A DNA stretch of 61,297 nucleotides, counting the filler, from Catajapyx aquilonaris (Eukaryota): the NCBI GenBank assembly GCA_000934665.2. It is 2 parts of 2 records of this genome, joined end to end, with 100 filler letters (N's around TTAATTAATTAA, not from the genome) between each part and the next. Parts side by side here need not be neighbours in the genome. Positions count along the whole stretch, not along the records: positions 1 to 30,477 come from KZ539185.1; 1 more part is not named here. One strand, given 5' to 3'. The position numbers were made by a program, and so were the translations under genes. The stretch's first letter is position 1; the number at the start of each line of letters is the position of its first letter. Shown one piece after another: positions 4,387-49,069 of the stretch. The notes under the pieces were generated by a model. It was not told where the DNA came from, searched no databases, and saw only the letters and a list, made by a program, of their open reading frames with translations.

Positions 4387-6426
4387 TCTAATATATATTT
4401 CAAGACGTATGTCCCTTGGTGTGACCTAAACAGATCCATACGAAGGCCTCCACATATGCCCCAGGGGTATCACTAGGGGTAGTTTTTGGCTGGGAAGGTT
4501 CTTAGCGCATTGGAATTCACCTCCGAGGTCATCCTTGGCCACAGGAGGCGAAAAGAACTTTCGGAGTTTGGCACCCTGTTCTAATAATCTGCATTTTGGT
4601 ATCAACAATCTTTGCTCAGTTGTCCGGGTTACAATGCCGGAGGGGTCAACATCGCCCCCCCCCTCCTCCCCCCTGCTGCCACTCCNCCTGCCACCATCCC
4701 CCCCGTCATTAAACTTTCGACATTTCATTTTATACAAACACATTTTTAAAAAATACCTTTGCCACGGCAACAGCGTTCCGTCGAAATAAACGGGGGTTTT
4801 GTCCCTGCACCCTACCTGTGTGCATTATCAATATCATCATCCCACCCACTTTAAGATGGGCCAAACAAAAAAGGTAGTAGCATTGGCAGATGAAGCTCAT
4901 CAGATACACGCAGAGTTCGGCAAAGGAGGGACCGGGAGACTGAGGAATAGAACACCATCAGGCACGTTTGAGTGCTAAAGCTACCAGCTATTCGAGAAAA
5001 AGAGAGCAGGAGAGTGAGGTGGAACGTCAGGCCCGTCTCAGTGCTGATGTCGCCAGACACTCCGCCTGCAGACAAAATGAGTCTGCTGAATAAAACCAAG
5101 CCAGACTCCACTCTTTGAGAAACGCGGCCATCATCATCAGCCGGAGATTAGCTCCATTTTCATCAACCAGCCTCCTAAATGCCACTTTCCAACTACTCCA
5201 CAACAGACATGGACTATTCTTCTGTCGATGTTGTTGCAATTGGTTCTATGTCAGAGGTATGCCAACAATGTCAGGCAAAGAAGTGGAAGGGTGAAACAAA
5301 ATCGATCTGTTTCTCCAATGGAAGAAAGGTTAGCTTTCCTATACCTCTCCACAGCTACTTAAAATGCTCCTCTTAGGTACTATCGGGTTCAAATACTTTT
5401 GGCCACTTTATCCTGGTCTAGAAGCAACCCTTCACATACACACACCTCCTTAACGTCGGGCTGTGCGAAGGGTTGCTTCAAGACCAGGAGAAAGTGGCCA
5501 AAAGTATTTGAACCCAATAGTACGTACGTCACCTAATAATTCAGAACATTTCCTGAAGACCATCAGAAATTACAATTCGGCCTTCCAGATGACATCTTTT
5601 GGGGCCAACGTTGTTAGAGAAGGGGGCTTCATGCCTACATTCAAAGTGCAAGGGCAAATTTACCATCGCATGGGATCACTCCTTCCTTCAGAAAATCACA
5701 GTCCGCGGTTTCTGCAACTTTACTTCGTGGGGAACATGCAACAGCAGGCGGAATACCGTTGCACACGCCTCCACATCACACTGAAACTTCAGGAGATGAT
5801 CCATTCCACTCACACTTACGTCAAAAGCTTCAAGCTTGCACTTGAGAGTCCTCCTCCTCTGGAATTTGACTTGGTCATAGATACAGACAAGCGACCACAA
5901 GGTGAGCATCGTGGTCGATTCAATCGACCTTCTTGCAATGAGATTGCTGTCATCATGAGTGGTCAGGAGCATGGTAATAAGAGGGATATTGTGTTCAGCG
6001 AAGCTTCGAGGTAACACGCTTCATCTATGCAATTATGAACGTAATTGGCTATATACCAAATATTGCATGTGCATCAATCCAAACAACACACTATACGGAT
6101 GCCAGATTCTAAGCTCTGCTATGTTGGAGCTTCTATACATACATTTACTTCTACATTTACTGCACAACCTTCAATTTTTCACTACATACTTTTGCTGGAT
6201 TTTGAAGGTGTATTGTGTATTTTCTTACAATCCGACATCCGCAGTGCGTTGTTATGACTTCATGCACATGCATGTTACAGGCTCCATGTTACAGGTATGC
6301 CAACATGGTATAGCCATAATTATTACAAAGGTAACTACCAAATCAATAATAAAGTAATATAAGTAATATAAGTCACTCCTATGGAAAAGTCTTTCATAAC
6401 CCGAGTAACGCCGGGTATCCTGCTAG
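4387..6426 (+). mobile_element. Internally deleted Helitron with Rep/helicase N-terminal remnant
   Basis: 5' TC after an A; 3' hairpin cccgagtaacgccggg plus CTAG before a T; no TSD; broken ORFs IGSMSEVCQQCQAKKWKGE and HFLKTIRNYNSAFQMTSFGA...TFKVQGQIYHRMGSLLP typical of Helitron proteins. Confidence 0.9.
5380..5520. mobile_element. TA-flanked MITE inserted in the Helitron ORF
   Basis: TIRs ctatcgggttcaaatacttttggccacttt / aaagtggccaaaagtatttgaacccaatag with TA on both sides. Confidence 0.85.
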
Positions 6427-8468: not shown

Positions 8469-11400
8469 ATGGTACTCAGGATAGCTCCAGAACCGCCGAG
8501 AGACGACTCTGATTGCCATTTCTCAGGGGACGAAGGTACATTTAAGGGTACATTGCTCTGAATTGATATCGCGCGAGCAAGTTGTGATTACATTGTGACC
8601 TGTTGGAAGAGCTGGGATTACCAGCTGTTAAGTTTAACCATTCAGGTTGCACTCCAGAAAGCATTCTTTAATTACAATACTATAAGGGAGGGTTGACTTA
8701 ATTATAACTTATCCATATGATTAGGTTTGGCAGAAGCAGGACCCATTGGAGTAGTGGTGGGCTCCAGTGATGATGAGGCAGAAACGGACTCAAATGTGGA
8801 TTATGGTGGTTATCAGCTACTACCACAGTCTTCAGTAGAACAGCTGGCAGAAGAAGGAACTGGTGATGATGAAGCTCCACCACAGGCACAAGGTGTTTCA
8901 GAAACACAGCTAGTAGGTCTTACAGTATTTTCTGAGTACTTTTCTATGCGAGGCAATCTGTATAAGAGATTGCATTGTTCTTTGTTGTGTTTGGAACCTT
9001 TTCAAGATCATCATGTCAGGCATCACCTATCAGGAAGTAACACATTGGAATTGGTACATGGGTCAATAGTGAAATAATGAAGAATTTCAGTTTAAAAATT
9101 TAAAAATAATAATGCCTTCAGAATATTTTTTAAAATTTTTTTCCACTAATAGTCTATAACAGCTGAGATCGTGGACTAGAATTGAATTATTGTGGAAATC
9201 AAAACCATGCTATGTTGCATTTTCAGGATTAACGAAACTCACCCTTATTGAACGAAGCCTATAATAATGAAAATACAGATCGCACATGCATGATTTTGGT
9301 ATGCACAGGAAGATTTGACAAAACTGTCGACATACCAGGTGGTACGACTCCCTTGAGTTGAGTGACGACTTTGTGTAAACGACAGTTGGACCCCCCTGCA
9401 GAGGCTGCAAAAAACATAGTGTGGGTTTGATTTCCACACAATCGTGGAACGTAAAACCACACTATGTCAAGCGAAAATCAAATTTATGATGCACGTAACT
9501 CGCAATTATGCTTCGAAGAATAGAGTGCGGGAAAAATAGTTCTGTCGAAATTGAACCCGTACCAGGTGGTTCGACACTGTTTGCTCGACCAGGAGCCATA
9601 CGGTAAGCAGTACCTCAAACAGTGTGCGATTTTACGTTCCATGGACTATCACGTGAAAGGGAATACGAGTGGACCAAGAGCACAGAATCTAGGTACCCTG
9701 GGTTCCTGATTCCCTCAGTCCAATAGCACATGAGTTGTTCTAAACACATAGAGGTGTGTTGCATATTAGGACAACCCAGTGTACCTAGATTCCGTTCGCT
9801 TCCTTGGCCCGCTCATATTCCCTTTCACATGATATTCCGTGGAATGTAAAACTGCGCTATGTTCGGGGTGAGTTGCAAGTGGGGCATGCAGTACTACTGC
9901 TCACCATACAGCTCCTGCTTGAGCGACAAGTGTCAAACCACCTGGTATGGGTTCAGTTTCCCCTGAACTATTTTTCCCGCACTTTATTCTGCTAATTGTA
10001 AATGCGAGTTAAGTGCATCATAAATTTGGTTTTACGTTCCACGAAAGTGTGGTAATCAAAACCATGCTGTTTTTTTCCGGCCTCTGAGGGGGGGAGTCCA
10101 ACTGTTCCTGGCCATTCAGTCATCTTTCAACTCAAGGGGGTCGTACCACATGGTATGTCGACAGTTTCGCCAAATCATTGCATGCATACCAATATCATGC
10201 ATGTGAATCTGTATTTTCGTTATAGGCTTCGTTCAATAAGGGTAAGTTTCGTTTATCCTGAAAATGCAATATAGCACGGTTTTGATTTTCACAATTCGTG
10301 ACTTTCCTGTTCAGAGCCCCCTAGCGGTTTCGACTCCCCACGGTCCCAAGATGGCGGCGAAATAGGTTGGAATCATATCTGAGCACCAGAGGCGACACTG
10401 TGGCAGTTTCTTTGGACCCCCTGCCCAACTTGTCTGATTTTCCGATTCCATGGCTTGTGGAAGGCAAGAACCAGACAAGTCAGCATGGATAAACAAATGC
10501 AGGGCTTCACACTCCCTTCGGGATGGATTCAGAAATGGAGCAGTGTCGCTGACCATGTAGGGGGTTAACCATCGCATCGGGGTGACCATGGAAATATGGG
10601 GATTCGCATATTGCTGCATCAAAGCCCATAACCGGATGGTCGGAACGTCTGCTGAACGGCGCGAAACTCTACTTCCCGGGCGTTCCCTGCCAAATCGTGA
10701 TGGGGGGGAGGGGACTTGCGACTCTTGCTATGGGGTTGCTGCGCATGTTGGCACAGTAGGCTACTAACCTTACTAACAGTGTACCCTGTTGCACCAACAT
10801 GCGGTGTCTCTCTTCCCAGTGAAGAATTATTATTGTGGATATTATTTATCCCAAAGGGAGTGTGAAGCCCTGCATTTGTTTATCCATGCTGACTTGTCTG
10901 GTTCTTGCCTTCCACGAGCCATGGAATCGGAAAATCAGACAAGTTGGGCAGGGGGTCCAAAGAAACAGCCACAGTGTTGCCTCTGGTGCTCAGATATGAT
11001 TCTAACCAATTCCAATGAGTTTGGATTCGTTGCATGCACCCCCCTTGCGAATTTGGTGCACCTACGACCATTCCTGTGGATTTTAGACAGGCTCAGTGCA
11101 ACAAGTACCTAAACGCCTTTTCATTTTCGATGTGACTTGTCTGGTTTTCCGATTCCATGGTTCAATTACTTTCTGATTCCCCCTCATAGTTTGCTGTTTT
11201 CATTACTTCTTCCTTTAGGCCTTGTTAACAAATAAACCAATTGTACTTGTTCCCAGATTGTTTATTAACAGTACTTGCAACTTTCAGGCAATTGAAAGGC
11301 ACGAGAAGAACTATGCAACTGAGATAGCCCCAATATGGCAGACCTGTCCTTGTAACAGTGGGGAAGAAGTAGCAACGATGGATTCTGACCAGGCAGAAAG

Positions 11401-11569
11401 AGTGAAGGCAGCCATGGAAGGGTTCACTTTACCTGCCTCTACTTTCCCTCCTTGGGCTCAGGAGGTATCTGAGGAAGTGTGGAAGGCACAGCTCATGGAC
11501 AGGATCCGAGGGAGAGGAGATGGGGGGATGGGAAGTGGAAGTGAACCAGACAACAGTGCTAGTAGGTAA
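8469..11569 (+). CDS. MEA1: Male-enhanced antigen 1 homologue, ~178 aa; exons 8469-8535, 8725-8912, 11288-11569
   Basis: GT-AG junctions join in phase (1, then 0); acidic N-half with GYQLLPQ; C-terminal MDSDQAERVKAAMEGFTLPASTFPPWAQEVSEEVW matches the recalled MEA1 motif [41 protein letters not shown] at ~11925. The first exon is the least certain part. Confidence 0.85.
9185..10298. mobile_element. Foldback non-autonomous DNA transposon in MEA1 intron 2
   Basis: ~400-bp imperfect inverted arms, e.g. gtggaaatcaaaaccatgctatgttgcattttcagga vs tcctgaaaatgcaatatagcacggttttgattttcac. Confidence 0.8.
10370..11002. repeat. Inverted repeat pair (~155-bp arms) in MEA1 intron 2
   Basis: 10370-10525 is the near-exact reverse complement of 10848-11002, so the same peptide appears in ORFs on both strands. 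Confidence 0.85.
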
Positions 11570-13664: not shown

Positions 13665-14096
13665 CAGCGGTTCTTAACCTGGGGTGCGAGAAGGGTGCCA
13701 AATGTACCATAATGGTACACAAAAAATACCATAATTTCGCCAAGTCCAATGTTACTCTGTAATTCCACGTCCATGAAAAAAAGTGCTACCAATGTTGTCA
13801 AATAAACACCCTGACACCTATTCAAATCTCCCAGTGAGTTACATTCACCTAAGATTGTGTGACCTTGAACCAAATTNCCCCCCCCCCCCCCATCTTACAA
13901 CTTGTTATACTCTTTCATTGAAGGCTATTTCATTTAAATTAACTCTCATTTTAATTAAATACGCGATTTTGGCACTGGCTGAGAGCAAGGTGTACCTCTA
14001 ACTCTGAACTTAATCTATCCCCCTGTTATAGGGGGTGCGACAAGGACCAACTGTCTTTAAAGGGGTGCAGAGGCCCGAAAAGGTTAAGAATCACTG
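13665..14096. mobile_element. hAT-like MITE
   Basis: TIRs cagcggttcttaacct / aggttaagaatcactg; shorter relative at 59340-59533. Confidence 0.8.
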
Positions 14097-15652: not shown

Positions 15653-15682
15653 GGGGGATTTTAATGCCTGTATAGGAAATTA

Positions 15683-16289
15683 CAGGGTGATTCTCCCGAA
15701 TGGAAACCCAAACATTCCTCAATAACTTTTTCACTATGGTATGGTTCCCAATGAAAATTGACATGTACTTACCTTGTATCATGCCAAACAAGGTCTGACT
15801 AAAGAATATACCACAAGTGGTCCCCTCCAGCATCCATGAATTTTTTAATGCGAGTCTGCATATTGCCGAAGAATCCTGCAGATGTGGTGGCAGGGATGGC
15901 ATCAATCTCCTGCCCGCCGCACACTGTAAGCCGTCTTTGAGAGCATAAATTGTTCGAGAGTTAATTTTCAACAAACTCCGCGAGAAAAAAAACCAACCCA
16001 TCATTCCCCAAAATTAATTGGACTGTTCCCGTGGCCTTGAGATGACCTCTCGCCAAGCAGGTGTTTCACTCCCGCCAAGGCAGTGTCCACATCTGCAGGA
16101 GTCTGGCAATATGCAGACTTGCATAAAAAATTTCTTGGATGCTGCAGGGGACCACTTTTGGTATGTTTTTTAGTCAGACCTTGTTTGACATGATACAAGG
16201 TAAGTACATGTCAATTTTCATCGGGAACCATACCATAGTTAAAAAGTTATTGAGGAATGTTTGGGTTTCCATTCGGGAGAATCACCCTG
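15683..16289. mobile_element. Tc1/mariner MITE with ~200-bp TIRs
   Basis: TA|CAGGGTGATTCTCCCGAATGG ... CCATTCGGGAGAATCACCCTG|TA. Confidence 0.9.
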
Positions 16290-17030
16290 TACAATACATA
16301 ACATAAATGAATCAGACCTTTTACTCTACTGGAACGTACAAAGACAAGCGAAAGATGAAACACGAAATTCAAACGGAAACAAATTGGTTGAGGTAATAGA
16401 TTACTTATCTCTATTCATTTTAAATGGCACGATGGGTTAAAGATTTCAAGATATTCCTGGTAACAGAATCAGACAATTTCATATTACAAGGCATAATCAA
16501 ATTCCCCCACGTAGTCGAATCGACAAATGGGTTCTTAACAAAGGAGGTAATCTCACCATTAGATGGCTTTGGTTTTTTGAATGAAGAATTTACTTGGATA
16601 TTAGGGACATTTGGGGGCATAGACAGTGAACTAGACAAGCAAATGAGTTTTTTCAACACCAGTATAACAGAAGCACTCCAGGACTTTGGGCTATTAAGCA
16701 CTACATCAGGCAAAGATCCAAATGACTTGAGGTTGAATTTTGCACGTTGATTCGATGTCGAAACGGCACAAGCGAAGGAACACATAAAGGGGTTATTGAA
16801 AATCTGGAGTAAGTCTGAGTCCCCGGAAGACAGAGAAGCCTACATAACTCAAAGAAAGGGCTATAAGAACATGATCGTGGCAAAAAAGAAAACATTTCGC
16901 CCCAACTCTGAGACAGAGATTACTTAAACCTTCATCCCCCGCCGAACTTTGGGCAGCAGTGAAAAACACAAAGAAACTTAAACCAAGGCCAGAGGTAGAA
17001 GAAGACAAATGGTGACAGTTTTTGGAATTT

Positions 17031-17847: not shown

Positions 17848-18461
17848 TTAAACACAGTCTAAATTCACAACAAATTCCGAAAAATTAGAGTCAGGTGAGG
17901 ATAACCCCCATATTTTAAAATGGAGACAGATCCCTGCCGGAAAATTATTGGCCGATAGCAATCTTGTATAACACGTTTAAACTATTCACATCAATTTTAA
18001 CGAACAGATTGCAGGAATGCGAATGCTCTGATGAGCACAATATTCTCTCAGACTGGCAAGCAGCATTTCGTAAAAATAGAGGCTGTATGGATCACCTTTT
18101 CACATTTCATATTCTCATTCAGAAATATTTGGCTAAGCCCAAGGGAAAACTATATGCACTATTTTTATAGACTTATCTAAGGCATTTGATTCACTTACAC
18201 ACAACAGACTTTTCAACAGACTAAGGCAGTCAGTTATAGAATGACCTCGCTTCTTAAACACATCTATGCCAAATTAGAAATGGTAGCATCACAAGAGTTG
18301 GAGACCATCAGAATAAATTGTTACTGGTTTGCCACAAGGTGAACCCTTCTTTAACCTATAGCCTAAAATGAAAATGCTAAAAAATCGCATTATTGTGCAA
18401 AAAGGGCACATTTCAGGCCGTCCAATGCCATTGTTAGCTGCATGCTACAAGTGTGAAATTA

Positions 18462-19207
18462 CGTGGGTCGTCTGATAATTATTAGCAACCCTGTTACCAC
18501 GCGGCACCCCAGGCTGCCAGGACCGAATGTGGATAAGTACTTTTAGAGTCGTCCCTGGGGAACCCTATGGTAACATTTGCGAAGCACTCGCAGCAGTAGG
18601 TGCGGAGCAATGCCTGTTCAAAGTGTACCCCCTCCACGTGATCACCCTAAAGACAGCTCTGCTTCAACAAGATTCCTGTTCGTTCCTGTTTCATGTGGAA
18701 AATCTTCCAGACAGCATCATCAAGGTCATGTGCAGGTGTGTTGCGACTCTGCCTCCCGTATCCTTCCATTGCAAGGTTCATACAAGCATTTCAAGAAGGC
18801 CCCCTCCCATACCGCAACAAACCCGACCCATTGCGAAGCTGGAACAACTTTGTTGGATATGGACCGGCGATGGACCTGCATCGAATTGGCTATGGAAATT
18901 GGAAAGCATTGGAAAGGAATTGGGAATGGGAGCTGTTGGCACAAGAGATCAACTACAAAAATTAAGGAACCCTTACATTACTTTCGTTTCTGTAAGAGGG
19001 AAGCATATCATAGGGCTGTCTCTGTGTGGCACCTCCACAAAAAACGCTGCTGAGGGCGTTCAAAGCTTTCTATGACTATGGAAAAATGTGATAAAAATAG
19101 CTGAGGACTACACCTAGCAGATGTAGGTAATGTGAAATGTTGATGTGTGTACCCATACTGGTACGAAAATTACAGCAGTGTTGCCAATAATTATCAGACG
19201 ACCCATG
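18462..19207. mobile_element. Tc1/mariner-type non-autonomous element
   Basis: TA|cgtgggtcgtctgataattattagcaac ... gttgccaataattatcagacgacccatg|TA. Confidence 0.85.
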
Positions 19208-19889
19208 TAATATCGTGACATCTGGTAATTACTTCAGTAGAAGGACAACATCACAAGAGAAGCAGTCTTGGAAATAATAAATACTGAAATGTCGGTTTTC
19301 CTGCCGTCATTTGGTCATCTTGGCACTGAATTTAAAAATTTGCTGCGGATGAACCACTCAGGGGGGCTGAACCTGTGACGGGATTTGGCCCGCGAGATAA
19401 ATACAACTGTGGGTCCTCTTAATTTCCACCATTTATTTTAGTCGCCAAAGTAGGTAAAGAGGTAGTGTGAGGAAGGAAAGGGAAGGGATGGTTAGTGACC
19501 TCCCCGAAGGGAAAGCTCAAAGAGCCTTGAATGGTCGGAGGTTGTCGCTGAAATACACACGACCGCCCAATGCATGATGGGAGTGGTGAGGTGTACAAGG
19601 TTGGCAGATGAATACAAGCAACAGTGTGAAGACAAAGTATACATACATGAACCAGCGTCTAGTACAGAAAATAGTCTGGTACCAAACCATTATTAAATCG
19701 TTAGGTCAATCTTGAAAAGACGCTTTTTTTGAACACACACAGATTGAAAATTGCCCTAGCTGTATATTGAGAAAAATGACCCCAAAAATGACCAAATGAC
19801 AGGAAAACTGACATTTCAGTATTTATAATTTCCAAGACTGCTTGTCTTGTGATGTTGTCCTTCTACTGAAGTAATTACCAGATGTTCAT

Positions 19890-20036
19890 GTATCATCAGT
19901 TCAGAAAGAATTGTCCCAGTCATCCTGACGTGTGGGCTGGCCGCTCGACACACACCATGTAAGTTACATGGTGTGTGTCGAGCGGGCAGCACACACATCA
20001 GGATGACTGGGACAATTCTTTCTGAACTGATGATAC
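19890..20036. repeat. 147-bp near-perfect hairpin (probable tiny MITE)
   Basis: gtatcatcagttcagaaagaattgtcccag...catgtaa G ttacatg...ctgggacaattctttctgaactgatgatac; flanks tcat / tcac. Confidence 0.9.
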
Positions 20037-20095
20037 TCACGATATTAATTTCACCACTCGCAGCATGTGGATGCGCCCTTTTTGCACAACAATGG

Positions 20096-20609
20096 GCAGT
20101 CTTGAAACAAGGACATGTCCCCCCCAGCCAGGATGTCCATCATCCCCTCCTTGGCTTCTGCACAGGTCCCATGGATATGTACCTCCAGGTACCTCCCTCC
20201 CTTGGACATAATGGCCTCTGCTATCAAACAACTCACTTTGGGGTCATTGGTGCAGGCCATTCCAACGTATCCCTTTCCTTTTGGGGTTGGTGGTGTGTTA
20301 AAGAGCATCTTTAACACACCACCAACCCCAAACATTACTTCCTTAGCAGAATCAGGGTTTTCAAGGCAGCTGATGGTGATGTCCGCTGCCTGCACGACCT
20401 CCGAAGTTGCCTGGCATTCCTTCGAATTGGAGCTCCAATCGACCACCTGGAGCTCCAACCCGAAGGAATGCCAGACCCTTCATGAGAATGCGTTTACCGA
20501 TGTCAGCGACAATCACACCAACGCGTTGGTGTGACTTTAGCTTTCTAGACACAAGATTGGATTTCTGGGCGTTGCAATGCCCAGAAATCCAATCTTGCAT
20601 CTAGAAAGC
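20096..20609 (-). pseudogene. GLYR1: GLYR1/NP60-like (3-hydroxyisobutyrate dehydrogenase fold) pseudo-exon
   Basis: After acceptor ccccactttag: KIGFLG..VGVIVADIGKRILMKGL..QVVDWS..EVVQAADITISCLENPDSAKEVMFGVGGVL..GKGYVGM..IAEAIMSKGGRYLEVHIHG..AKEGMMDILAGGDMSLFQDC, colinear with the recalled GLYR1 dehydrogenase domain; stop and frameshift come from inverted insertions; truncated by a transposon arm. Confidence 0.8.
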
Positions 20610-21319
20610 TAAAGTGGGGAAAAAACATTCCAATGCATTTCATCACATAGTTCCACTAGGCAAAACAATGACTGGCCAAATTTGACAATGCAACTGTTAG
20701 TCCACTTCTGCATGCAAAGTTTGGAGACAACTTTGTCCTCCATAACGTAGTTGCCACAAAGAGACATTACTGACACCAATTTTCATCAATTGAAGGGTCC
20801 TAGATAAAAAACGCACTTTTTTGGGGGGGCGGGGGGAGGGGGGGGGTGCAGCAATTATGTAGGCTATTTTAAGCCGCATTTACATGGGAGCGATTTATCA
20901 GCAATGTTGCAGTGATGTACATAGCTTATAAATTATGACTTTCTTTGTAAACGCGGCTTTAATGCCATTGTACATTCGTGTATGTAGCTGAACTACGGCA
21001 ACTTACGGAAATAAAAAGTTTCATGATGTACCAGTGAAAGTTGAGTAATCAGCGATTTTAGCTCATTTTACCACCAGTTTTTGGAAGTTTTTTGCTGTTT
21101 TTGATCTCAGATCCCTCAATATTATTGTTGAATTTATATACAATCATGTTGTTGTTTTTTTCCAGCTGTACCATGATCCTATCACGAACAAAATCCCGTT
21201 TCCTCCCGCAATCAAAATCCATCACTCGCAGGCAATGATTAAAGACGGTTCACGAAAAGATGATCCCCTAAGAGGCCCAAGAGGCCTATCACGGGGTATT
21301 CATTCCTATTCATTGGCTT

Positions 21320-23840: not shown

Positions 23841-24345
23841 CAGGGTGGACGGAAAGTTTCGGNNNNNNNNNNNCCCCCCCCCCCCCCCAGGTTTTTTAAC
23901 CCAACTTTTCACAGTGTCTTTTCACATCTTTTAAAAGTCCACAAGCAGTTGTAATGTACAGTACACTATCTTTTGAAGCATAATCTTGAGAACATCTGAG
24001 CACCTTCGCTCTCGCAGCAATTCCATTAATAACTTCGCCTCTGTGATTCATCTAAACATCCAATCTGTTTTGCGTTCATTTTGCTTGTTGCCTTGGAGGA
24101 CCCCAGGTCATATTCCGCGTCAGCTAAGGTTTTTATGACCCTTTTCCATGAGTTCTCCTTCATGCAAATGTTGTGAACTCACTCCTGACCTTATTTTTCG
24201 CATTGGTCCATAACCTGGTCCAATAAAAATTTGAAAAGGAATGCATGAAATGGCCGACCCGGAACTGCTTGTGGACTTTTAAAAGATGTGAAAAGACGCT
24301 GTGAAAAGTAGGGTTAAAAAACCTGGGGGGNTTCCGTCCACCCTG
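23841..24345. mobile_element. Tc1/mariner MITE nested in an element rich in CCAATATTGG motifs (~23780-24960)
   Basis: TA|CAGGGTGGACGGAA ... TTCCGTCCACCCTG|TA; inverted arms extend ~110 bp. Confidence 0.85.
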
Positions 24346-26571: not shown

Positions 26572-26933
26572 TAGTTAAGCTACAGTGAAAACTAAAAATT
26601 TCCCATCAATTTTATAAGCCGCCCAGGAATCTCGACCGAAAGCCCAGTGTTTTCTCCGAGCTCCACAACGTGGTGTTTCATATTTAGGGCCGCTTTTTGT
26701 TTGGCACAGCAGATGTCTCTCTCAAAAGTGGGGGAAGGAGGAGAGGGAATGGGTCAGATTATTTCGAAAAACCGGCAACTATGCTCTGAACCCGAACATA
26801 AGCTGGGAGGGTTGCTGCCCTTGATGTTATCATCTATAATCCTCTGTGGCATGTGCCACAGCCTGTTGAGAAAGTCGAGTAGTCCATTTTATATAATCCT
26901 GAAGTGACGTCTCACCACCCCTCTACTGACTTA

Positions 26934-27058
26934 GGGCCGATTTCACCGAGCTCAGTATATGATAAAACCAGGGTATTTCTCAAAATCCCTATCTATTTGT
27001 ATGGATTTTCCTAAAGAAACCTGGTTTTATCATATACCAAGCTCGGTGAAACCGGCCC
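26934..27058. mobile_element. PIF/Harbinger-type MITE
   Basis: TTA|GGGCCGATTTCACCGAGCT ... AGCTCGGTGAAACCGGCCC|TTA. Confidence 0.85.
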
Positions 27059-27904
27059 TTAGTAAAATTATTGTAAATACAGCAAGTTACAGTTGTATGT
27101 AAAAGATGAACACTTCACTATTTCTTAGAAAACCATAATACAGTGTTTCATGTTTTTACAAGTTTTTGATGTGTTTTATTAGAGTTTTTTTTGCTCCTCG
27201 TATTATCCGACCATGTCCCAGTCCCTTGAATGATGGATAATCGTGGTTCTGGTGTGTGTGTATATTTGCATCTGTAAAATGGGACAGATTTGGGGTGGGA
27301 TAAATGCCTCTATTGACTTGCTCAAAACTTTTTTTGTTAATTTTTTATATGCCATCATGTTGGATTTATACTCATTTTTCTTCACCATGACGAGCAAAAA
27401 CGAGCATTTGCTAGGGTTCTGAAAAAACAAAAAAGGCTACTGTCTGCATGGTGTCTATTCAAGATAGGATGTTCTGGTTTTCACTACTTACTGAAAGTAG
27501 AGGTCTGGGCATTTCAGAATATGCAGGCCTACACTACATGTAGGGTAAAACTTTGGTAACTGTGACTTTATTAATGGTCTTACATATGGCCGCCGAAATG
27601 ATAAATTTTGCCATTTTCAAATGCCTGTAAAATCAAAAGGGCTTGAAACAACAGGATGGACTTTTTACATTCATGAACTCTGACTGGGAGGGGATCCAGC
27701 CATGGTAAAATACGTAAATTCGGGGTTGCAAGCCCTTCCGGCCAATTTTTAGGTCAGAAATGGGAGAAATTTCGAAATTTGCATTCTTCAAGGTCTAATA
27801 TCTCATAAAGTGGTATACTTTTAAAAATGCGAAATTTTGGCCACGGATACTCCTACTATTCCTTAGTAAAAAACACCGCGAATAAAACCATGCCCTTTTC
27901 TGCC

Positions 27905-30477: not shown

Positions 30478-30577
30478 NNNNNNNNNNNNNNNNNNNNNNN
30501 NNNNNNNNNNNNNNNNNNNNNTTAATTAATTAANNNNNNNNNNNNNNNNNNNNNNNNNNNNNNNNNNNNNNNNNNNN
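30478..30577. other. Scaffold gap: 100 nt of N with a central TTAATTAATTAA linker
   Basis: 44 N + TTAATTAATTAA (30522-30533) + 44 N; an artificial all-frame-stop spacer. Confidence 0.95.
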
Positions 30578-34269: not shown

Positions 34270-37200
34270 TTAGAGGCGGTACCACTCCATAGACACTCGA
34301 TGAGCACTAGACTCGATGACATGGGCTATTTTTTCTGGAATTTGATGCCCCAGCCACATCATTTGCAACTGGTGATATCTGTCGTGGCTTAAGTGGAGTC
34401 GGTTTCCTCTCCTCAACCCTACATCAGTTTCACCATAGTCATCCAAGTATGGAGGCGACACAAAGCAACCTGCAAGGATAATATCCTACATTATGCATTG
34501 CATATATGCATTTTCTTTTTGTCTTGCATTGCTTAAAAAAAAAATCTCACTATCAAACAACATTATTTAAAAAATTACTATCTACAGGGTGTTTGTGAAT
34601 CGACCAGTCAGACCTGTACCCGTGGCTCAATTGACACCAGAGGATCATGTTATGTAGCGGAGTCATTATGTCTGGGCAGCCTCATTACCGAGATAATTGC
34701 CTTCAAACGACAAGTACAAAGTATCCTGGGAGGTATGGAAACCTTCAGTCTCGAAATCGCATCACCGGACAAAATAGCAGCCTTTCAATTTTTTTCAAGC
34801 GCAATCGCAATCTTTGCAATCTTTTTCAAGAGCAATCGCACTTGTCACTGCTATTTGACAATCACTCTTAGGCCCAATTGCTAAATCGCAAATGATCAAT
34901 TATCTCAGTAATAAGGCTGCCCAGACATAATGATCCTCTGGACATGATCCTCTGGTGACAATTAAGCGATGGGTACAGGTCTGACTGGTCGATTCACGAA
35001 CACCCGGTATAAGCAGCATTATTATCTTGATAGTGAATACTTATAATCTGACCATAGCATTCCCAATTATTTTAACAGCATGCTATTCTTTTCATAGTAA
35101 TAGAGTAAGTAATAACTAACCTTTTGTGCATCCAGCCATAACAAATGCTTCACAATCACGAATTCTCAAGAAAATTCCAACACCTGCACCGCAGTAGTAG
35201 GCATGATTGGTGCAAGCCCCTACCAGCTGACCTTCCAGTTGATACTGGCAGCAGAGGCTCTGAAAAAGTGAAACACATGCATTCAAGGATTAGGGATACA
35301 AAATATTCTAACACATCCCATACAGCCCATGGCCAGGGAGCATATACTACATAAGAGGCGCAAACTTCTGTCGGGCCATTGTTGTTCGCGTCTTTCTGTT
35401 TATAGGGTGTTGCCAAGGCCGGCGGCCATCTTGACGTGTGTGGGATACCAACGAGGTATAAATAGGGTACAGGCAAAAATAAGGTCCGCCATCTTTGATG
35501 GTTTTGGCTGCCATGGCAACTACACTGCAAGAACACGCGCGAATTTGAATTCGATATTGGAAAATTGGTAAGTAAATTGTTATTGCCGTGTATTTCCATG
35601 GCAGCCAAAACTATCAAAGATGGCGGACCCCCGCGGACCTTGACTGCCTGCCTGTACCCTATTTATACCTCGTTGACATACCACACACTTCAAGATGGCC
35701 GCCAGCCTTGGCAACGCGATAAACAGAGAGACGAAAAAAATCGAATGTTTGCGCCTCTTATGTAGTATATGCTCCCTGCCATGGCTTTTAAACCCTGCAT
35801 CCACACGGGAGGTGCAGATAATTATGTTGTGATGTGATGATGATAATGTCGTATGAATAACTTTCCACAATGGATGTCAAGTGCACATGTTAGAATGACC
35901 ATAACTCAAGCACATCTACCTCTCCAGTGTGACTGCACAATGTCATTCATTCTAGAACACTTCACCTGTGAGCACAGTATTTCTCCACAGACCAGGCACA
36001 TCGTAGGTGTACGCACGTCTTCCCCATGTCTATTGGGGCAAGTGAAGAGTGATACAGAGTTGATTAGCTCACTGTAGTCTGCTGGTAGTGTCACAAGCTG
36101 GTTAGGTACCACTGGGTGCCTCACAACACCAGCCCTTTCCTCTGTGCCCAACATACTGCTCACTCGGGGATGCTCAGCCCACCTTTCAGCCACTTGCCAC
36201 ATTGTCATACCAAACAGCTCCATGCACTCCGCTGGTAAACCTAGGTAGCGACACAGTCCATGAAAGGTGTCCCCGCCGATCTCCTGCAATTCCCTGGAGC
36301 CAGGGACATCCGTGAGGAAGTGAAAGAAGAGGGCACAACATCGAAGGAATGGAATAGTTGCCTCGGTTATTACTTTCCAAGCATTACATGGCTTCAGGTA
36401 ATCTGGAGTGGTTAATCCGGCTGCATCTCGGACCCTGTGCAGCAAGTCAACAACACATCTACTCTCCTCCTCTTCATTATCCATTTCACCACTGTCAAAA
36501 TTGGCTGTCAGCATAACCTGCACAATGTGGCTTGCGACTACTAGGTGTAGGACATACAGGTCTTGAACAGAACCGCAGGGGACAGGGGGTGGTGCGGAGA
36601 GTGAAAATAGGCTTGGAAGACACATCAGGAGTTGGATAAGCAATCCGAGAGGGTCCCAGTCCAATATGCAAGTATCTGGCTGATGGGGTCCACTGGGAAG
36701 TAACATGGTGAGGAGCTGCAGTGCGTGACTGGCCAACATACAAGGCTGCACTCTAGGAAGATGCACACCCTGAGCTTCCTGCCCAAGATGTCCTTCAATT
36801 CCTCCCAATGCTGGGGCTAACACTCCTGCACAACGAACAATACCCATGAGACAGTATTGCTCACGAGATGATAAATGGCTCAGGAGAGGTTTCCCTTCCT
36901 CACGGAGGAGCCACTCATTGGCATTCAGGGTGTAGCAGCATGATTGCCACACCATCAGAGGAACACATTCATCCTCCATATGTGGGTTAATACCCAGGCC
37001 GATCTTCATGTAATTATGAAAAGAAAGCCATCACGTTACTAACAGGTTCAATGTAACTGTCGGAAAACAATGCTACTGTTCATGCAGCCAGAAAATAGTA
37101 GTGTTGTCTCAGGCCTTTGTTAGTTCAATTGTTGTTGACATAACTGACAGCATGAACAAGTTTATCAGTGGCCATAAGTTTACTTACAGTGTAGGTAGCT

Positions 37201-38176
37201 TGCAAGTAGAGGTTGAGCATCTCAATGAGGCTGTTGGAAAGCACAGTCGGCTTTCTTGTGATGCTTATTGTGGCATCCTCATCCTGTTGACCATTTTCTG
37301 ACTCAGGTTGGGTTAGCTGCTTCTACATTAACAAGAAAGCAACAATGTCAACCTCTGCCCAAGTTTGACAACTGACATTCACAACTATCCGTGTACTGCA
37401 GTCAAGTCACTGAGAATGCCAAAATACATACAATGCAGAATGAAATGAAACACATAGCTGACCTTGTCCTTGAGGCTGATCAGCAGTCCATCCAACCAGT
37501 CTTCAAAGGAAAGGTATTCAGGAGGGACATCATTTGCCTCACTCAACAGTCCCAGGGGCGGCACAAGGGGCAAGACTGTATTACCTATACACCCACAGAG
37601 AGGGCACAGATATTCCTGCTTGTTGATGTCAAAGCTCAATGGCGTCTGCGATCTGTGTGCAACGGAAAGGAAGAATAAGGTACAAGCACTCGACCCCTGT
37701 CACCCCCAACTCCAGATAAATAAAATAATTTGATATAGGGTATTCATTGGTAATAATCTAAGAAACCTTTTGATGAAGTATAATTGGGCTTGGTCTAGTT
37801 TATTGCAGTAGGTTAGTCTGCAAACATGTGCATTACACTAGTGGGGCTATTTTTGTATCAAAAATTTTCATTGCGACAGAGAGATTTCTGGCCCCCAATC
37901 TTTGAAGGATAGTCTGGGCTGCATTTTACACTGCCTTCGCTTTTGACAATACTCTTGCCATGTTCCTCAGGAACCTCGTAGAAGGTGATAGAATAATCCC
38001 CAGATATTTATACTCACTGTCAGTGACAAACTCAATTCGCTTTCCTTCCATTAGTATTCTATTATTCCTCACTGCGATTCCCCCTCTTTGGAATACCACA
38101 ATTGCGTCTTGGCTAGGTTAACTTTCATTTTCTTTCATTTGAAATAATCTGTTAACAAGTTCACTGCCTGTTGTAA

Positions 38177-38238
<62 letters not shown>

Positions 38239-41200
38239 TTGGATTCCTGCATAGGTCGATGAGTAGTACATGTCACTAAATTTTGGTCAAGATTTGTCGG
38301 AAGGTGGCCCGCTTGACGTGGAATGCCTCATATATATTTTTTAATGTCCATTTAAATGGACATTTGGTCTCAGGTTGAAAAGAAAATTACCAGTTCTCTA
38401 CAGCAACAAAGATTGTCACAGACACATCTTTTTGTATTTCCTAATACACATTCCTTGCGAATCCCAGCACATTCACTGCATTGACAAAAATCGCACTCTA
38501 AGTATGAGGGAAAAAATATAACTTATCAAAAATGAGTACCTAGCTTCAGCAGCTGCACCCGCCATTTTCATGAGTGATTTAATTTTCGTGGCCAAAGTCA
38601 GCTATTCGACACTTGGTGGCTACACATTGAGGCCAGATTGTAATCATGGGATACCAACAGATTACAGTGCTGTTGACATCACTAGTTGGCGCCAATTTTT
38701 TTTTTTTGCTGATGTCAACATATGAAGACATCAGGTCTCAGGAGGATATAACTTACATGTATTCAATATCAGTAAATAAACCATGATAAATAATTTGGTG
38801 TTTGCAAAGACTGTGTCTTCTCAGTCACACGACTGACAGTCCAGTCCAGCATCTCAGAAGGGTTGGCTGAGATGTGTTTTGGCCAGAAAGTGTCCCAATG
38901 ATCATTTCCATTCCATGAGCTCAGTTAAGTTACATGTCTCTTGAGATGTAATTTTTAAAATTTGAATCTTGACTTCTCTGCAGAACAGTTTGGCTCTTAG
39001 GTATTACCCTTGGCACATGTATAGGACGAAGATGTTAATGCAGACCACTGCATCTGTCCAACAACACTTTAACAGTTCTTCCAGGTACGAGCAATCTCAA
39101 CTTAAATAAAAATAGTGTGGTTGCTTACCTATATTGCCGTCTTCTCGCATTAGCTAGTATGTTGTCAAAATACTTCTGCCAGCAGTCACTATGCATGACA
39201 TGTCCACAGGTGCTGGTCAACGTCCCACAGGATAAATCGGCTGGGAGATATAGGGGATTGCAACCCTTTGCATCACCCTTCTCTGTCCTGTTGCCTCCAC
39301 CATACCCTGCTCCTCCCTTCACTCCCTTTCCTTCATCAGCTTGCTCCATCCGTTTGGTTCTGTATTTGCATAAAATGGTAGATCTTTGCACATAGGCAGG
39401 CAGGACCAAACACCGGCCTATGGCACTCACACTCGCATCTTCTTGGCATAATATGCATGTATGGCTGAAATGATAAAATAAAGACTTGGTTGACACATGT
39501 TACCTCCTGCAGTTATGTGTGTAAAATACTAGCTGTAACTAAATTCTACTACCCATGAATCCACTAGTGGCATTTCTCCCATCTATTTTTAACAGTGAAT
39601 TTTTATCAATCTGCACACATTCTTTTGTCCACATATTAAAACATGTGAATTTTTTGTCTTCCCAGCAGAAAAAATAAAATCCTTTGTACTAGACAATGTC
39701 AAACACAAATGTCTTATGTGTATATTTTGCAGCTTCTCACATTCATGAGAATATCTCAAATTGTTGAGCTCTCAAGCAGTTATACTCACCATTGATCAAT
39801 GACCTGCCTTGGTGTCTGGTTTGGACCCAAGGCTACTTGTATCTCACATGCAACCTTGCTGACGTCCATAGCAGCGGAACCCCCCACAGATGGTGTGGCC
39901 CCCTGTTCCTTCTCAATGGCCTCAAACAACTCTGCATTCTCCTTCAAAAATGAATTCTGCATGGCAGTCATCTGAGCCATCATCTTGGCACCACTTGCTT
40001 TTGCCATTTCCTGCCTTACTAGCCTCTCTTTCTGAGGGTAGAAATGTAATAATCAACAAATGCACCCTACAAGCTCATGAACATATTGGAAGATCCCTAG
40101 TGCTCACGCTGATGGCCTCCTCATCCTCCTCCTGCAGCTTACACTTGGTGGTGTCAATGGGCACCTCCCTTCCAGTTTCTCCCATGGTCTTGGCTGTTCT
40201 AGCCGCCACCTGCCTGTACTTTGTTAGGGTCCAAGTGAGCAGATTCTTGCACGAGTCCACTTTCATGCTCCCCACTAGGGTTTCCATAAGATTTATCAGC
40301 CCCCATCTTTCTGCCTGTTCTGTGAAGACTACAAGTTGGGGAGTCTCTGTCTTTTCCCTCTTTTGCCGCTCCTCCTCATGCAGTGCATAGCCAATCAGAT
40401 GCAGGACAAGGTCAAACTGAACTTCTGAGAAGCTACTAGCACAGAGGATGTTTGCCCTGTGAGGTATGAAATAATAAAGTCAGCTTCGTTGTGTCATGCT
40501 AAAATCTAGTAAGAATACATCCTGCTTTTGACAGCTTCACATCCTAAAAAACTACTAAGCTTATTTAGGAGTAGCAACAGATCTCACCACTCAAGTATGA
40601 GTTTCATGAGGTGGAGCATAACATCACACTGGAGCAAGTTTGCCACCATCTTGAAGGATTCAGTGAAAGGTGGAAGTGGGGGAGGAGGGCAACACTCAAG
40701 TTCTCCTGCAGCCTTCCTCTTCTTGCATTGAGCTTCTTCGGACTTGGACTGCTCCTCCCGGGTGTAGTGGTAGAAAAACGGGTTGTACTGGAAATCATGC
40801 TCAGGCTTCAATTCATACACCCCTTTTTCATTGCCAATGATGGGTTTCCTGAAAACTGCTACCTCCTCTATAACATGTTCCAGCAGCATTACATGGTTGG
40901 CATCCTCTGGAAGCTTTTCAAGTAAGGCAGAGTGGGCCATAGGCTCAATACACAAAAGCTGTATTATCTCGTGCTTTACGCAATCCTCTTCCGTCACCTG
41001 GTAAAAATGTCCATAAACACAGCTTCAGGCAGAGAAATCAGGCACATTAAATTTATACTATTTTATTACATTTTGACTGTTGAAATTATGGAAATATAGG
41101 AGGAAAGATTAATCTTTTGATTTGAAGTTGTTCAGTGATTTCTTTGCCCCCCTTGATTTCAAATCAATGAGGTTTCATTTCATGCTATGGGATCAAATAG

Positions 41201-42005
41201 CAAAATCCAAGAGAAATAATGATCATCTTGACCAACCTTGCCCACTCCTGGCAACCACCTCTCTCCCACAACTCTGATGAGAAGTCGCAGCAGCTCCTCC
41301 ACTAGGATGATCACCTGCCTCACACTCTCCTCCTCAGAGATGTTGTTTAAGGAGGAAGTCTCAACGTCAGCCTTGGCCCAGTTCATTAGTCTAAACTTGT
41401 TGAGTAGGTGGATGAGAAATTCATTGCTCTCTATAAGGGAGGCTCCCATCTGTAGTACCATAGTGTCTCTGTCCAGCATCTCAAAGCGGCACTTCACATG
41501 ATGGTAAAAGTACAGTTGATTACAGAGGGAGTAGCCATTGCGGCGCCACATGCCTGCATGCGCCTGTGCCACCATCACCTATTTAAGAAATTGATTTGTT
41601 CACTCAGGTGGCCCTTTTTAGAGAGCATCTACTGCAAGGTTGAAGCAAAAGTCACAGGAGAAGTTCTGTAAGAGCCAATAATGCAAAGGAAGTAGGGGAG
41701 ACGGAGTGGCGCTGCGGTAACGTATGTGTCCACGGATGTTAAGGTCCCGAGTTCAATCCCCTTCATCTCGTGCAGAGTTAGGCCGTCTCTGGCTTCATCT
41801 CGGGTGGTATCTCCAATAGACAAACCACCCGGGGGAGTTCACAAAACGACCACACTTGAGACATTGCACTGCACCTTGTACATCCCCTCCTGCCACCCGG
41901 CCAGTGGGCCCGGGCGCTACGTTATCAAGTCCTGATGTGTACTAATGTATATGAGTAATAAAGGTCCATGCCATATAACTCGGAAGGAGTTCGTGCACTA
42001 CCTGG

Positions 42006-42043
<38 letters not shown>

Positions 42044-48513: not shown

Positions 48514-49069
48514 TATTCGACTAAATTCTACTTTGGGTGTACCACCTGTTAATCTGCAAAGAAAAGAAACATGCCTGTTAATATGCAGCAAGTGCTGGGA
48601 ATCCTGGCAAATAGACTTAAGTTTGAAACTGAATTTTCCAAGTCATGACCTCACTGTTCATGACCACCTGTGTGGTTAGCATTGCCAATTTAATTTATAA
48701 TTCACTTAAAAGTAATTTTTCCCATTACACTTTGTACACCTGAAGCATAATTTATGCACACCCATCAAATTTACACTTTTCTTGCTAATAAGGACCTGCT
48801 GTTTCATTACAGGCAAAATTAATTAAATTAATCCCTACCCCCTTTAAAAAAAAAATCACCAACAAAAATCCTTGAAATCCCCCATAAATATGTGTCACGG
48901 GGAAATTGCACAGAAGAGGTGTGCCATGCTTCCAATATTACCCACTCAAAGTGCCCACTCACCCATCCATTCAGTAATATACTCAACTGTATTGTTTTTC
49001 CCCTATTGCACGCTCTTGCAACAAGTACATTGTTGTAAATGTTTTGAGCAATGCACAAGTTTTTTATTG

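Follow-up and report, generated by a model that had tools for sequence, protein, structure and literature searches.

How did four palindromes come to lie within 336 nt of one GLYR1-like exon, and do the hairpins that they would form serve any purpose? In this study, we analysed a 61-kb stretch (61,297 nt) of Catajapyx aquilonaris DNA, termed the window, along which all positions are counted. The palindromes are named P1 (20534-20615), P2 (core 20513-20534), P3 (20411-20474) and P4 (20280-20332). Most likely, they are marks left by errors in DNA copying or in the repair of breaks.

The N-PAC/GLYR1-like exon copy

The coding similarity and its upstream flank are both on the minus strand:

20095..20608, minus strand: lone exon-sized N-PAC/GLYR1-like NAD-binding (beta-hydroxyacid dehydrogenase) fragment with two out-of-frame inserts
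20609..20650, minus strand: intron-like upstream flank, a pyrimidine tract and AG immediately before the coding homology

A preliminary description had called the exon GLYR1-like, and domain, structure and protein matches agree with this. The fragment matches the Rossmann domain PF03446 (NAD_binding_2; E 6.5e-10, 39.7 bits with the cut-off at 21), the PDB entries 3pdu (1.3e-17) and 2uyy (N-PAC; 7.2e-16) and a profile built from 69 full-length relatives (E 6.7e-37), with 44% identity to an insect N-PAC and 51% to the best representative. All seven homologues of our homology set (used for tblastn and for blastp colinearity) matched 20096-20449 as the sole region of the window, and tblastn with these seven detected no other N-PAC exon in the window, with no further HSP below E 0.23. 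When the profile was searched against all six-frame ORFs of at least 15 aa in the window, the next-best match reached an E of only 3.5, and no similarity to the rest of the exon was found beyond the inverted-repeat nest (below 18388). N-PAC/GLYR1/NDF combines a PWWP domain with a beta-hydroxyacid-dehydrogenase-like domain (PDB 2uyy). The Rossmann part is colinear here at 40-51% identity, but the window holds a single exon-sized piece, lacks the N-terminal PWWP and the C-terminal NAD_binding_11 domains, and carries two frameshifting inserts; further exons may lie outside the window.

In each palindrome one arm is homologous to coding sequence, while the other is extra relative to all seven homologues (7/7), as had been proposed. 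Omitting 20574..20519 (56 nt) and 20471..20450 (22 nt), both of which shift the reading frame, restores 480 nt (160 codons, 0 internal stops) that are colinear by blastp with 7/7 homologues at E values from 4.5e-34 (P0004) to 2.2e-27, in agreement with the preliminary description. The extra arms are regarded as putative inserts on the basis of the protein homologues and of the point at which one contig ceases to match. Tiny introns were rejected as an explanation of the inserts: none of the positions permitted by the direct repeat described below gives the 56-nt insert GT..AG ends, and 22 nt is too short.

Further damage is seen in the fragment itself. The dinucleotide-binding motif G-x-G-x-x-G reads G-V-G-V-I-V, its third glycine being changed to valine, and downstream of the K-E-C segment the fragment lacks about 10 residues. 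The final ~15 codons of the 142-aa frame are not GLYR1 sequence but lie in an arm of a larger inverted repeat. Judged by its sequence, the fragment is probably a dead, non-functional exon copy in which neither the frame nor the motif is intact. The 41-nt arm of P1 includes, as had been noticed before, an inverted copy of a putative splice acceptor (pyrimidine tract and AG, 20609-20615).

Palindromes and neighbouring inverted repeats

A repeat search over 19800-21100 recovered all four palindromes where they had been placed previously:

20280-20304/20308-20332, P4: 25-nt arms, 100% identity, 3 nt between the arms
20411-20437/20448-20474, P3: 27-nt arms, 93% identity (2 mismatches), 10 nt between the arms
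20534-20574/20575-20615, P1: 41-nt arms, 93% identity (3 mismatches), 0 nt between the arms
20505-20523/20524-20542, P2: perfect core is the 22-mer 20513-20534

The search also revealed a fifth palindrome, absent from the preliminary description, at 19890-19962/19964-20036 (73-nt arms, 96%). A scan of the whole window for hairpins (arms of at least 18 nt, loop of at most 12 nt, at most 8% mismatches) returned four, 4/4 inside 19890-20615, whereas none occurred in any of 30 first-order Markov simulations of the sequence. Under these criteria, P1-P4 and 19890-20036 are the sole strong short-loop hairpins of the window. Perfect arms of at least 11 nt number 11 in the window, compared to 0-2 per simulation (6 across the 30). 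The arms differ at 0/25 (P4), 0/11 (P2), 2/27 (P3) and 3/41 (P1) positions, a pooled 5/104 or 4.8%. All five mismatches are transitions, and the three in P1 reflect CpG sites that decayed in opposite ways; for one of these, a third copy of the sequence (copy 2 of the direct repeat) retains the CpG. Four of the five form G:U pairs on the minus strand, a count that had been given correctly, but since each of five transitions has a 50% chance of being G:U on this strand, the one-sided binomial p is 6/32 = 0.19 and not significant. Selection was therefore rejected as a reading of this strand bias.

Several other elements are found in the vicinity:

19890..20036, no strand: 147-nt palindrome with 73-nt arms, a high-copy repeat (MITE/foldback-like) and not a local duplication
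19210..20045, no strand: TA-flanked element with terminal inverted repeats of about 86-100 nt, the 147-nt palindrome being nested in its right end
18388..18493, no strand: left arm of a large inverted repeat, the right arm of which is 19176-19209 plus 20048-20094
20823..20846, plus strand: G-run tract that might form a G-quadruplex, some 210 nt away from P1; the window has 8 such motifs

The previous statement that the palindromes are not transposon terminal inverted repeats holds for P1-P4, which have single-copy depth, but not for the neighbouring 19890-20036, where the summed contig depth is 11,000-47,000 compared to 10-25 in the flanks and many loose ends come from other copies. Many copies, as expected of a MITE or foldback element, were thus found for 19890-20036 and not for P1-P4. 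The terminal inverted repeats of the TA-flanked element lie at 19218-19303/19800-19885 (97%), its ends match once the nested palindrome is omitted, and contig depth is at repeat level at 19737-19884. The right arm of the large inverted repeat adjoins the end of the N-PAC homology; its arms align with a score of 86 and one 26-nt gap, and a 15-mer of it is present twice in the window. Because no target-site duplication was found at 18387/20095, it may be either a transposon or a sixth, older inverted duplication. The G-run was considered as a cause of a hotspot, but with eight such motifs in the window its nearness to P1 is not significant (chance about 0.17), and it is a lead only.

On the minus strand, the arms are composed as follows:

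20575..20615, minus strand: P1 ancestral arm, intron end followed by C-K-I-G-F-L-G
20579..20575, minus strand: 5-nt direct repeat, copy 1, the last 5 nt of the P1 ancestral arm
20534..20574, minus strand: P1 inserted arm, abutting 20575-20615 without spacer as its reverse complement, with 3 mismatches that are all CpG transitions
20524..20533, minus strand: P2 inserted arm, a perfect reverse complement of 20514-20523 without spacer
20513..20523, minus strand: P2 ancestral arm, V-G-V codons
20523..20519, minus strand: 5-nt direct repeat, copy 2, in the P2 ancestral arm, 1 CpG transition compared to copy 1
20450..20471, minus strand: P3 insert of 22 nt that separates the K-G-L codons from Q-V-V-D-W, the reverse complement of 20414-20435
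20411..20437, minus strand: P3 ancestral arm, W-S-S-N-S-K-E-C-Q, holding a pre-existing 10-nt palindrome
20308..20332, minus strand: P4 ancestral arm, F-G-V-G-G-V-L-K
20280..20304, minus strand: P4 inserted arm, perfect reverse complement, 3-nt loop 20305-20307

These junctions fit the mutational reading put forward in the preliminary description, namely template switching or end-joining with templated inverted synthesis. From them we infer the mechanism as well as the number and order of the events. P1 and P2 most plausibly arose together in a single compound event, and therefore three events rather than four would have occurred. In the first, 51 nt would have been placed between the two copies of the 5-nt direct repeat, comprising the reverse complement of the left 41 nt and, directly after it, that of the right 10 nt. 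Allowing for later substitutions, 51/51 inserted letters are the reverse complement of adjacent sequence, and the P2 inserted arm meets that of P1 without untemplated letters. The zero spacers in both palindromes suggest that the complementary strand was copied or that hairpin-capped break ends were opened, rather than a simple snap-back. In the second event (P3), 22 nt would have been copied backwards from 14 nt downstream with a 10-nt loop, which is the classic snap-back/template-switch pattern; 22/22 inserted letters are the reverse complement of nearby sequence, again with later substitutions allowed, and the junctions show microhomologies of 3 nt and 2 nt. In the third (P4), at least 25 nt of backward-copied sequence would have taken the place of part of a surface loop, with a 3-nt loop remaining between the arms. 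This insert (20280-20304) is in frame and leaves the frame unbroken, and it replaces part of a loop whose length varies among homologues, solved relatives showing a 6-residue gap at this position.

Read support and a second copy

Read support was assessed in Logan contigs, which were built separately from three runs of one sample (2014). In 3/3 runs they cover 20055-20800 (in X1, 20007-20800), differ from it at 0 letters and contain 0 gaps, and their depth over P1-P4 equals that of the flanks at single-copy level. No contig that joins across any of the inserts was found in the three runs of this sample. The events are germline and real in the reads of the sample, and enough time has passed since they occurred for CpG decay to make the arms drift apart. 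The DNA evidence stems entirely from this one sample, which is probably the one that was assembled.

In all three runs (3/3), a second contig of 174 nt is about 90% similar over 20579-20650 (7 other letters, 7/72), and this second copy also carries the intron-like flank 20609..20650. It ceases matching at 20579, 4 nt from the centre of P1, as would be expected if this copy were without the P1 insert. Run X5, from another study (share 0.05), matches only the high-copy palindrome and, at 5 differences, 20351-20406, after which it is unlike the window; P1-P4 are not covered by X5 and gain no independent support from it, and its contig is read as another diverged copy. A joint from 20135 to 20351 was considered as an allele without P4, but it is more likely derived from the second copy.

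Origin and meaning of the palindromes

We consider it probable that the locus is a lone, non-functional one-exon copy, together with about 40 nt of upstream intron, of a divergent N-PAC/GLYR1-type gene that was scarred by three templated inverted-duplication events. By default, the hairpins are taken as by-products. Polymerase-theta and SD-MMEJ snap-back synthesis are related routes of templated insertion at double-strand breaks, and inserts of 22-51 nt seem to be at the long end for template-switch mutations. In the four-point model of short template-switch mutations, as presented by Loytynoja & Goldman (2017; PMC5453318), Monttinen & Loytynoja (2022; PMC8794818) and Monttinen et al. (2023; PMC10710096), a nearby reverse complement replaces or extends a stretch in one event and yields a perfect hairpin; two of these sources describe whole hairpins made at once (PMC5453318; PMC10710096). 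P3, with its junction microhomologies, and P4 each fit a single switch-and-return, whereas the locus as a whole comprises three events or four palindromes in 336 nt, and P1+P2 requires two successive reversals. Fold-back inversions of 2-150 bp are reported to arise at breaks in yeast, microhomology-primed beside the break and captured with 0-5 bp of microhomology (PMC11724301). P3, with microhomologies of 2-3 nt and a 10-nt loop, and P4, with a loop of 3 nt, resemble such fold-back or snap-back products. However, the known products are experimental and somatic or clonal, while those described here are germline and aged, and the zero-spacer palindromes P1 and P2 are unlike what is expected of intrastrand snap-back. 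The clustering also weighs against the preferred reading: at a uniform rate, three independent events in 336 nt are improbable (roughly (336/61297)^2 for the second and third), and none of the window's other unique sequence carries such inverted duplications. Therefore, a hotspot or a single compound event would be required.

The latter would be microhomology-primed, low-processivity break-repair synthesis (MMBIR/FoSTeS-like) with several template switches, by which all palindromes arose at the birth of the fragment. This is a variant of the preferred reading and compatible with it, and we regard it as possible but rather unlikely. It would account for the confinement of the unique-sequence palindromes to a fragment of roughly 560 nt that stands without any other N-PAC exon in the window, and the mismatch counts of the four pairs of arms fit a single common age. 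The intron flank also speaks for it, as it marks the fragment as a DNA-level copy. However, the second copy differs by ~10% (7/72) compared to 4.8% between the arms, which suggests that the palindromes are younger than the duplication of the fragment, on small counts and with only patches at least 90% alike compared. In addition, no upstream junction of the fragment with its surroundings is definable.

A second alternative concerns P1+P2, which might be the excision footprint of a cut-and-paste transposon that duplicates 5 bp and leaves hairpin-capped flanks (Transib/RAG-like), the hairpins having been opened 41 and 10 nt from their tips and then joined. The order of the sequence corresponds to this: flank, 5-nt repeat and the reverse complement of both are followed by the reverse complement of repeat and flank, then by repeat and flank. 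Both spacers are zero, no untemplated letters occur, and DNA transposons have landed repeatedly within 500 nt. hAT, Transib, MULE and RAG are described as leaving hairpins on flanking DNA, the repair of which leaves footprints (PMC5499845), and 5-bp duplications are attributed to Transib/RAG-like elements (PMC7204232). As in such footprints, the target duplication is kept on both flanks with inverted copies head to head; the 5-nt repeat on both sides (1 CpG transition) has the Transib/RAG length and is accompanied by mirror tracts of 41 and 10 nt, although template switching could yield the same. P tracts are normally 1-4 nt long. Measured against this usual length of a few nucleotides, the tracts are long and 41 nt is extreme. 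No Transib-like transposase or end was found in the window, and no transposase domain was present in the 95 of 164 window ORFs scanned. Moreover, a three-switch template-switch event gives the identical product, and a 5-nt duplication also results if copying returns to the original template 5 nt behind the place where it left. Taken together, an excision footprint appears improbable.

Still less likely is that the hairpins are an existing or emerging source of small RNAs (an hpRNA, shRNA or miRNA-like cluster) on a minus-strand transcript that acts on the parent paralogue. In its full form, which we rate as just as poor a prospect, serial template switching or repair would have made a polycistronic cluster of four 11-41 bp stems on one minus-strand transcript, to be diced and to silence the ~90% similar parent paralogue. 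Folding of the minus-strand RNA, as suggested in the preliminary description, did give four consecutive hairpins (-216.9 kcal/mol, z -18.6, 0/100 shuffles as stable), P1 pairing over about 37 bp around an 8-nt loop. The roughly 90% similar second copy would be a possible target, and template switching is documented as an origin of new miRNA hairpins in PMC10710096. However, the plus strand folds nearly as well (-198.2, z -15.9) and the G:U bias (4/5, p = 0.19) lends no weight. All stems pair perfectly or nearly so, three of the four have loops of 0-3 nt, and the mismatches resemble neutral CpG decay and not compensated change. In Rfam, 28 matches at E<=1 were obtained on both strands, all generic hairpins and 0/28 reaching the gathering threshold; the best (52.2 bits, gathering 75) is on the high-copy palindrome. 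With Drosophila hpRNAs and pseudogene-derived endo-siRNA sources the locus shares an inverted duplication of sequence from a protein-coding gene and the potential for double-stranded RNA against a paralogue. Drosophila hpRNA arms are hundreds of nt long and give many phased siRNAs, whereas a long single duplex is not found here, only four separate stems of 11, 25, 27 and 41 bp. If true, this reading would describe a de novo small-RNA gene caught at birth, produced wholly by mutation bias.

Finally, an assembly or amplification chimera, with the inverted inserts absent from the animal's DNA, is hardly credible: all supporting runs derive from one 2014 sample, perhaps the assembly's own data, and P2 and P4 are perfect as expected of in-vitro chimeras, but a different assembler reproduced the same 746-794 nt from 3/3 runs separately, with 0 differences and a depth like that in the flanks, neither a contig lacking an insert nor a joint across any palindrome was reported, the arms of P1 and P3 carry transitions (three at CpG) that in-vitro copying would not yield, and three to four inverted inserts fixed in one 336-nt stretch are unlike the behaviour of random chimeras.

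Templated inverted duplication, the preferred reading, is a known kind of mutation that is unusually clustered at this locus, and no new principle is involved. The position of three events beside an inverted-repeat nest suggests a local hotspot or one multi-switch repair event, and P1+P2 could preserve a trace, seldom seen in vivo, of break ends that were capped by hairpins. For annotation, it matters that such inserts break genes yet keep long open frames on both strands, and that they mimic miRNA precursors in covariance-model scans. If the reading holds, the locus would be an unusually clear natural specimen of replication or repair errors writing perfect hairpins into unique sequence, in which every inserted letter is traceable to its template, the original frame provides an internal ruler and CpG decay a clock.

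A probable decayed N-PAC-like exon copy carrying palindromes

The minus strand contains an open frame of 142 codons (20051-20479) that matched Pfam NAD_binding_2 (E 6.5e-10) and, among solved structures, beta-hydroxyacid-dehydrogenase relatives including human N-PAC (2uyy, 7.2e-16). Its database matches are ~540-aa proteins that combine PWWP, NAD_binding_2 and NAD_binding_11 domains, such as hoverfly N-PAC (44% identity), and an exhaustive representative search returned 263 relatives at E <=1e-3 with a top identity of 51%. Two more frames upstream, K-I-G-F-L-G and V-G-V-I-V-A-D-I-G-K-R-I-L-M-K-G-L, both align to the Rossmann-fold start in seven homologues. Sequence and repeat search confirmed the four palindromes of the preliminary description (P1 to P4) at their coordinates, and a fifth, absent from it, lies 250 nt from them.

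Palindromes of the cluster
19890-20036: fifth palindrome, 73-nt arms, 96%
20280-20332: P4, perfect 25-nt arms, 3-nt loop
20411-20474: P3, 27-nt arms, 2 mismatches, 10-nt spacer
20513-20534: P2, perfect 22-mer
20534-20615: P1, 41-nt arms, 3 mismatches, no spacer

Such density is not matched in the simulated sequence. Of 20 inverted pairs in the window (arms >=18 nt, <=60 nt apart), one is the N-gap and five lie within 19890-20615. Under stricter settings (arms >=18, loop <=12, mismatches <=8%) all four hairpins of the window fall in this 726-nt stretch, and none occurred in any of 30 first-order Markov simulations of the window. Short perfect palindromes elsewhere are mostly repeat-derived or low-complexity (AT microsatellite and similar). 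One of them, a perfect 22-nt palindrome, is present twice with mirrored flanks (974-995 and 38343-38364) and probably belongs to a family of dispersed repeats. Further inverted repeats of greater length are located at 5374-5526, 15681-16291, 23883-24330, 26929-27063 and 52939-53019.

It had been claimed that removing the inserts restores a frame colinear with GLYR1. Scripted removal of 56 nt (20574..20519) and 22 nt (20471..20450) indeed yielded 480 nt, or 160 codons without internal stops, colinear with all seven homologues (best E 4.5e-34 vs about 1e-23 unrestored). P4 leaves the frame unbroken and adds six residues relative to solved relatives, in a loop of variable length among homologues.

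The fragment appears to be a lone and dead copy. With seven full-length homologues, tblastn found nothing else in the window better than E 0.23, a match of one homologue to the inverted arm itself (20448-20510). An unfiltered profile of 69 full-length relatives detected only the N-PAC-like frame (E 6.7e-37) among six-frame window ORFs of >=15 aa, the next-best score being E 3.5. In the nucleotide-binding motif, valine replaces the third glycine, and about 10 residues are absent after K-E-C in the alignment to homologues. A stop lies four codons upstream of C-K-I-G, with a pyrimidine tract and AG before it; since this intron flank is present, the fragment would be a DNA-level copy and not a retrocopy. 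No exon continuation was found below 18388.

Downstream, the fragment abuts three nested layers of repeats within 18388-20094.

Nested repeats beside the fragment
18388-18493: left arm of a large inverted repeat
19176-19209 and 20048-20094: right arm of the large inverted repeat, split by the next element
19210-20045: TA-flanked element with inverted ends of ~86-100 nt
19890-20036: 147-nt near-perfect palindrome, nested in the right end of the TA-flanked element

N-PAC homology stops at 20096, <=2 nt from the right arm of the large repeat, and the 142-codon frame therefore finishes with ~15 codons that are not GLYR1. The 147-nt palindrome has TCA-type flanks and lies 4 nt from the end of another repeat's inverted terminus. 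Its contig depths sum to 11,000-47,000, about 1000x single copy, and other copies contribute many loose ends, so that it is classed as a high-copy foldback or MITE-like repeat and not as a local duplication. No target duplication was found for the large inverted repeat at 18387/20095; it may be either a transposon of low copy number or a sixth inverted duplication, older than the others.

In the cluster's half of the window, the only other domain detected (95 of 164 ORFs of >=75 aa scanned) was MEA1 (male-enhanced antigen 1), in an ORF or exon at 11219-11566 on the plus strand (E 1e-17). On the minus strand at 35909-48642, beyond the filler at 30478-30577 (44 N, a 12-letter all-frame stop linker, 44 N), are exons encoding zf-UBR, ClpS-like, winged-helix and PRT6_C domains of a UBR1/UBR2-type N-recognin E3 ligase. 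Because the window joins two records, whose halves need not be genomic neighbours, this gene need not be linked to the cluster. Long G or C runs are found at 20823-20846, 58210-58265, 49130-49150, 23874-23888 and 13878-13891, several adjoining a single N; these tracts may be hard to sequence, or might form G-quadruplexes. Eight motifs like the G-run tract 20823-20846 exist in the window, so its nearness to the cluster is not significant.

Read support and diverged second copies

Five sequencing runs, none recorded as RNA, comprised four of one sample (0.86-0.91 of sampled words) and one from another study (0.05). We examined contigs of three runs of that sample (X1, X2 and X3, possibly the assembly's own reads) and of the other-study run (X5). 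In all three sample runs a separately built contig, independent of the assembly, spans 20055-20800 (X1: 20007-20800) with no other letters and no gaps, at a depth (18.7, 24.9 and 9.95) equal to that of the flank 20662-20800. No contig joint in these three runs of one sample bypassed any inserted arm, and the X5 contigs do not cover P1-P4. An assembler chimera is thus excluded for this data set. Among the 104 arm pairs there are five mismatches, each of them a transition. P1 holds three, all through CpG decay: at one site the two arms have decayed in opposite ways, and another site is retained as CpG in a third copy (direct repeat). These transitions count against in-vitro chimeras, which would be perfect.

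The same runs hold extra contigs at ~1.5-1.9x depth on three patches of the fragment.

Second-copy patches
20579-20650: 7 differences in 72
20077-20135
20351-20383

One X5 contig matches 20351-20406 and then diverges in sequence, its 30-letter loose end, translated by eye, resembling the next N-PAC-domain residues. Together with the patches, this continuation indicates that at least one further diverged copy exists. The match 20579-20650 stops 4 nt short of the P1 centre, at a CpG-to-CpA change, which among the matches listed (pieces of >=90% identity) is the pattern expected from an insert-less copy and is suggestive of one. The contig at 20077-20135 crosses the junction of fragment and large inverted repeat, so that this junction may predate the duplication.

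Anatomy and possible origin of the inserts

On the minus strand, P1 and P2 read as the left flank with its terminal 5-nt word, the reverse complement of the flank's last 41 nt, the reverse complement of the 10 nt that follow on the right, the repeated 5-nt word and the right flank. Both have zero spacer, and 51 of 51 inserted letters are templated. This arrangement could go back to a staggered break: its ends would have been filled in, turned into hairpins and then opened, one 41 nt and the other 10 nt from the tip. Alternatively, it might be a transposon excision footprint with 5-bp duplications and hairpin-capped flanks, or a copying error with three switches that used the complementary strand. 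Snap-back within a single strand needs a loop and is therefore unlikely here. P3 contains a 22-nt reverse copy of a source 14 nt downstream, with nothing lost, junction microhomologies of 3 and 2 nt and a 10-nt loop; its source arm holds a pre-existing 10-nt palindrome, and by its sequence P3 would be a textbook snap-back or template-switch product. In P4, >=25 nt were copied backwards beyond a 3-nt loop, replacing ~7-19 nt of variable loop (as estimated from homologue loop lengths). Pooled arm divergence is 4.8%, and the individual counts (P4 0/25, P2 0/11, P3 2/27, P1 3/41) are compatible with a single age.

The closest known kind of event is the short template-switch mutation. In it, a stretch is swapped for the reverse complement of nearby sequence, with a whole hairpin possible in one step (PMC5453318, PMC10710096, PMC8794818). 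Fold-back inversions of 2-150 bp are documented at yeast breaks, microhomology-primed and captured via end joining (PMC11724301). Hairpin-capped flanks are left by hAT, Transib, MULE and RAG, and their repair gives footprints (PMC5499845); Transib and RAG-like elements make 5-bp duplications (PMC7204232).

We consider it likely that the locus is a dead lone exon copy with three templated inverted-duplication scars beside an inverted-repeat nest. The mutational half of the preliminary interpretation is supported. The scars may have arisen one after another at a hotspot or together in a single compound repair event, and a transposon footprint may account for part of them.

Predicted folding and coding potential

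The other half proposed a source of small RNAs. As suggested there, the minus-strand RNA (20260-20640) was folded and is predicted to form four consecutive hairpins (-216.9 kcal/mol, z -18.6); beyond this fold and the presence of a second, similar copy, nothing specific favours such a source. However, the plus-strand RNA is nearly as stable (-198.2, z -15.9), a difference attributable to four G:U pairs on the minus strand versus one on the plus. The count of four G:U pairs in five mismatches was correct but is not a significant strand bias (p 0.19), since any transition within a perfect stem creates a G:U pair on one or the other strand. In Rfam, 28 matches at E <=1, on both strands, belonged to unrelated miRNA families and none reached the gathering score. 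Drosophila hpRNA loci resemble the cluster in principle only. A small-RNA source seems improbable.

The cluster of probable templated inverted duplications adds a new case, unusually clean and tightly grouped, to a kind of mutation that is already known. The palindromes have also made a plus-strand open frame of 142 codons (20106-20534), which partly mirrors the peptide and is a pitfall for gene prediction.
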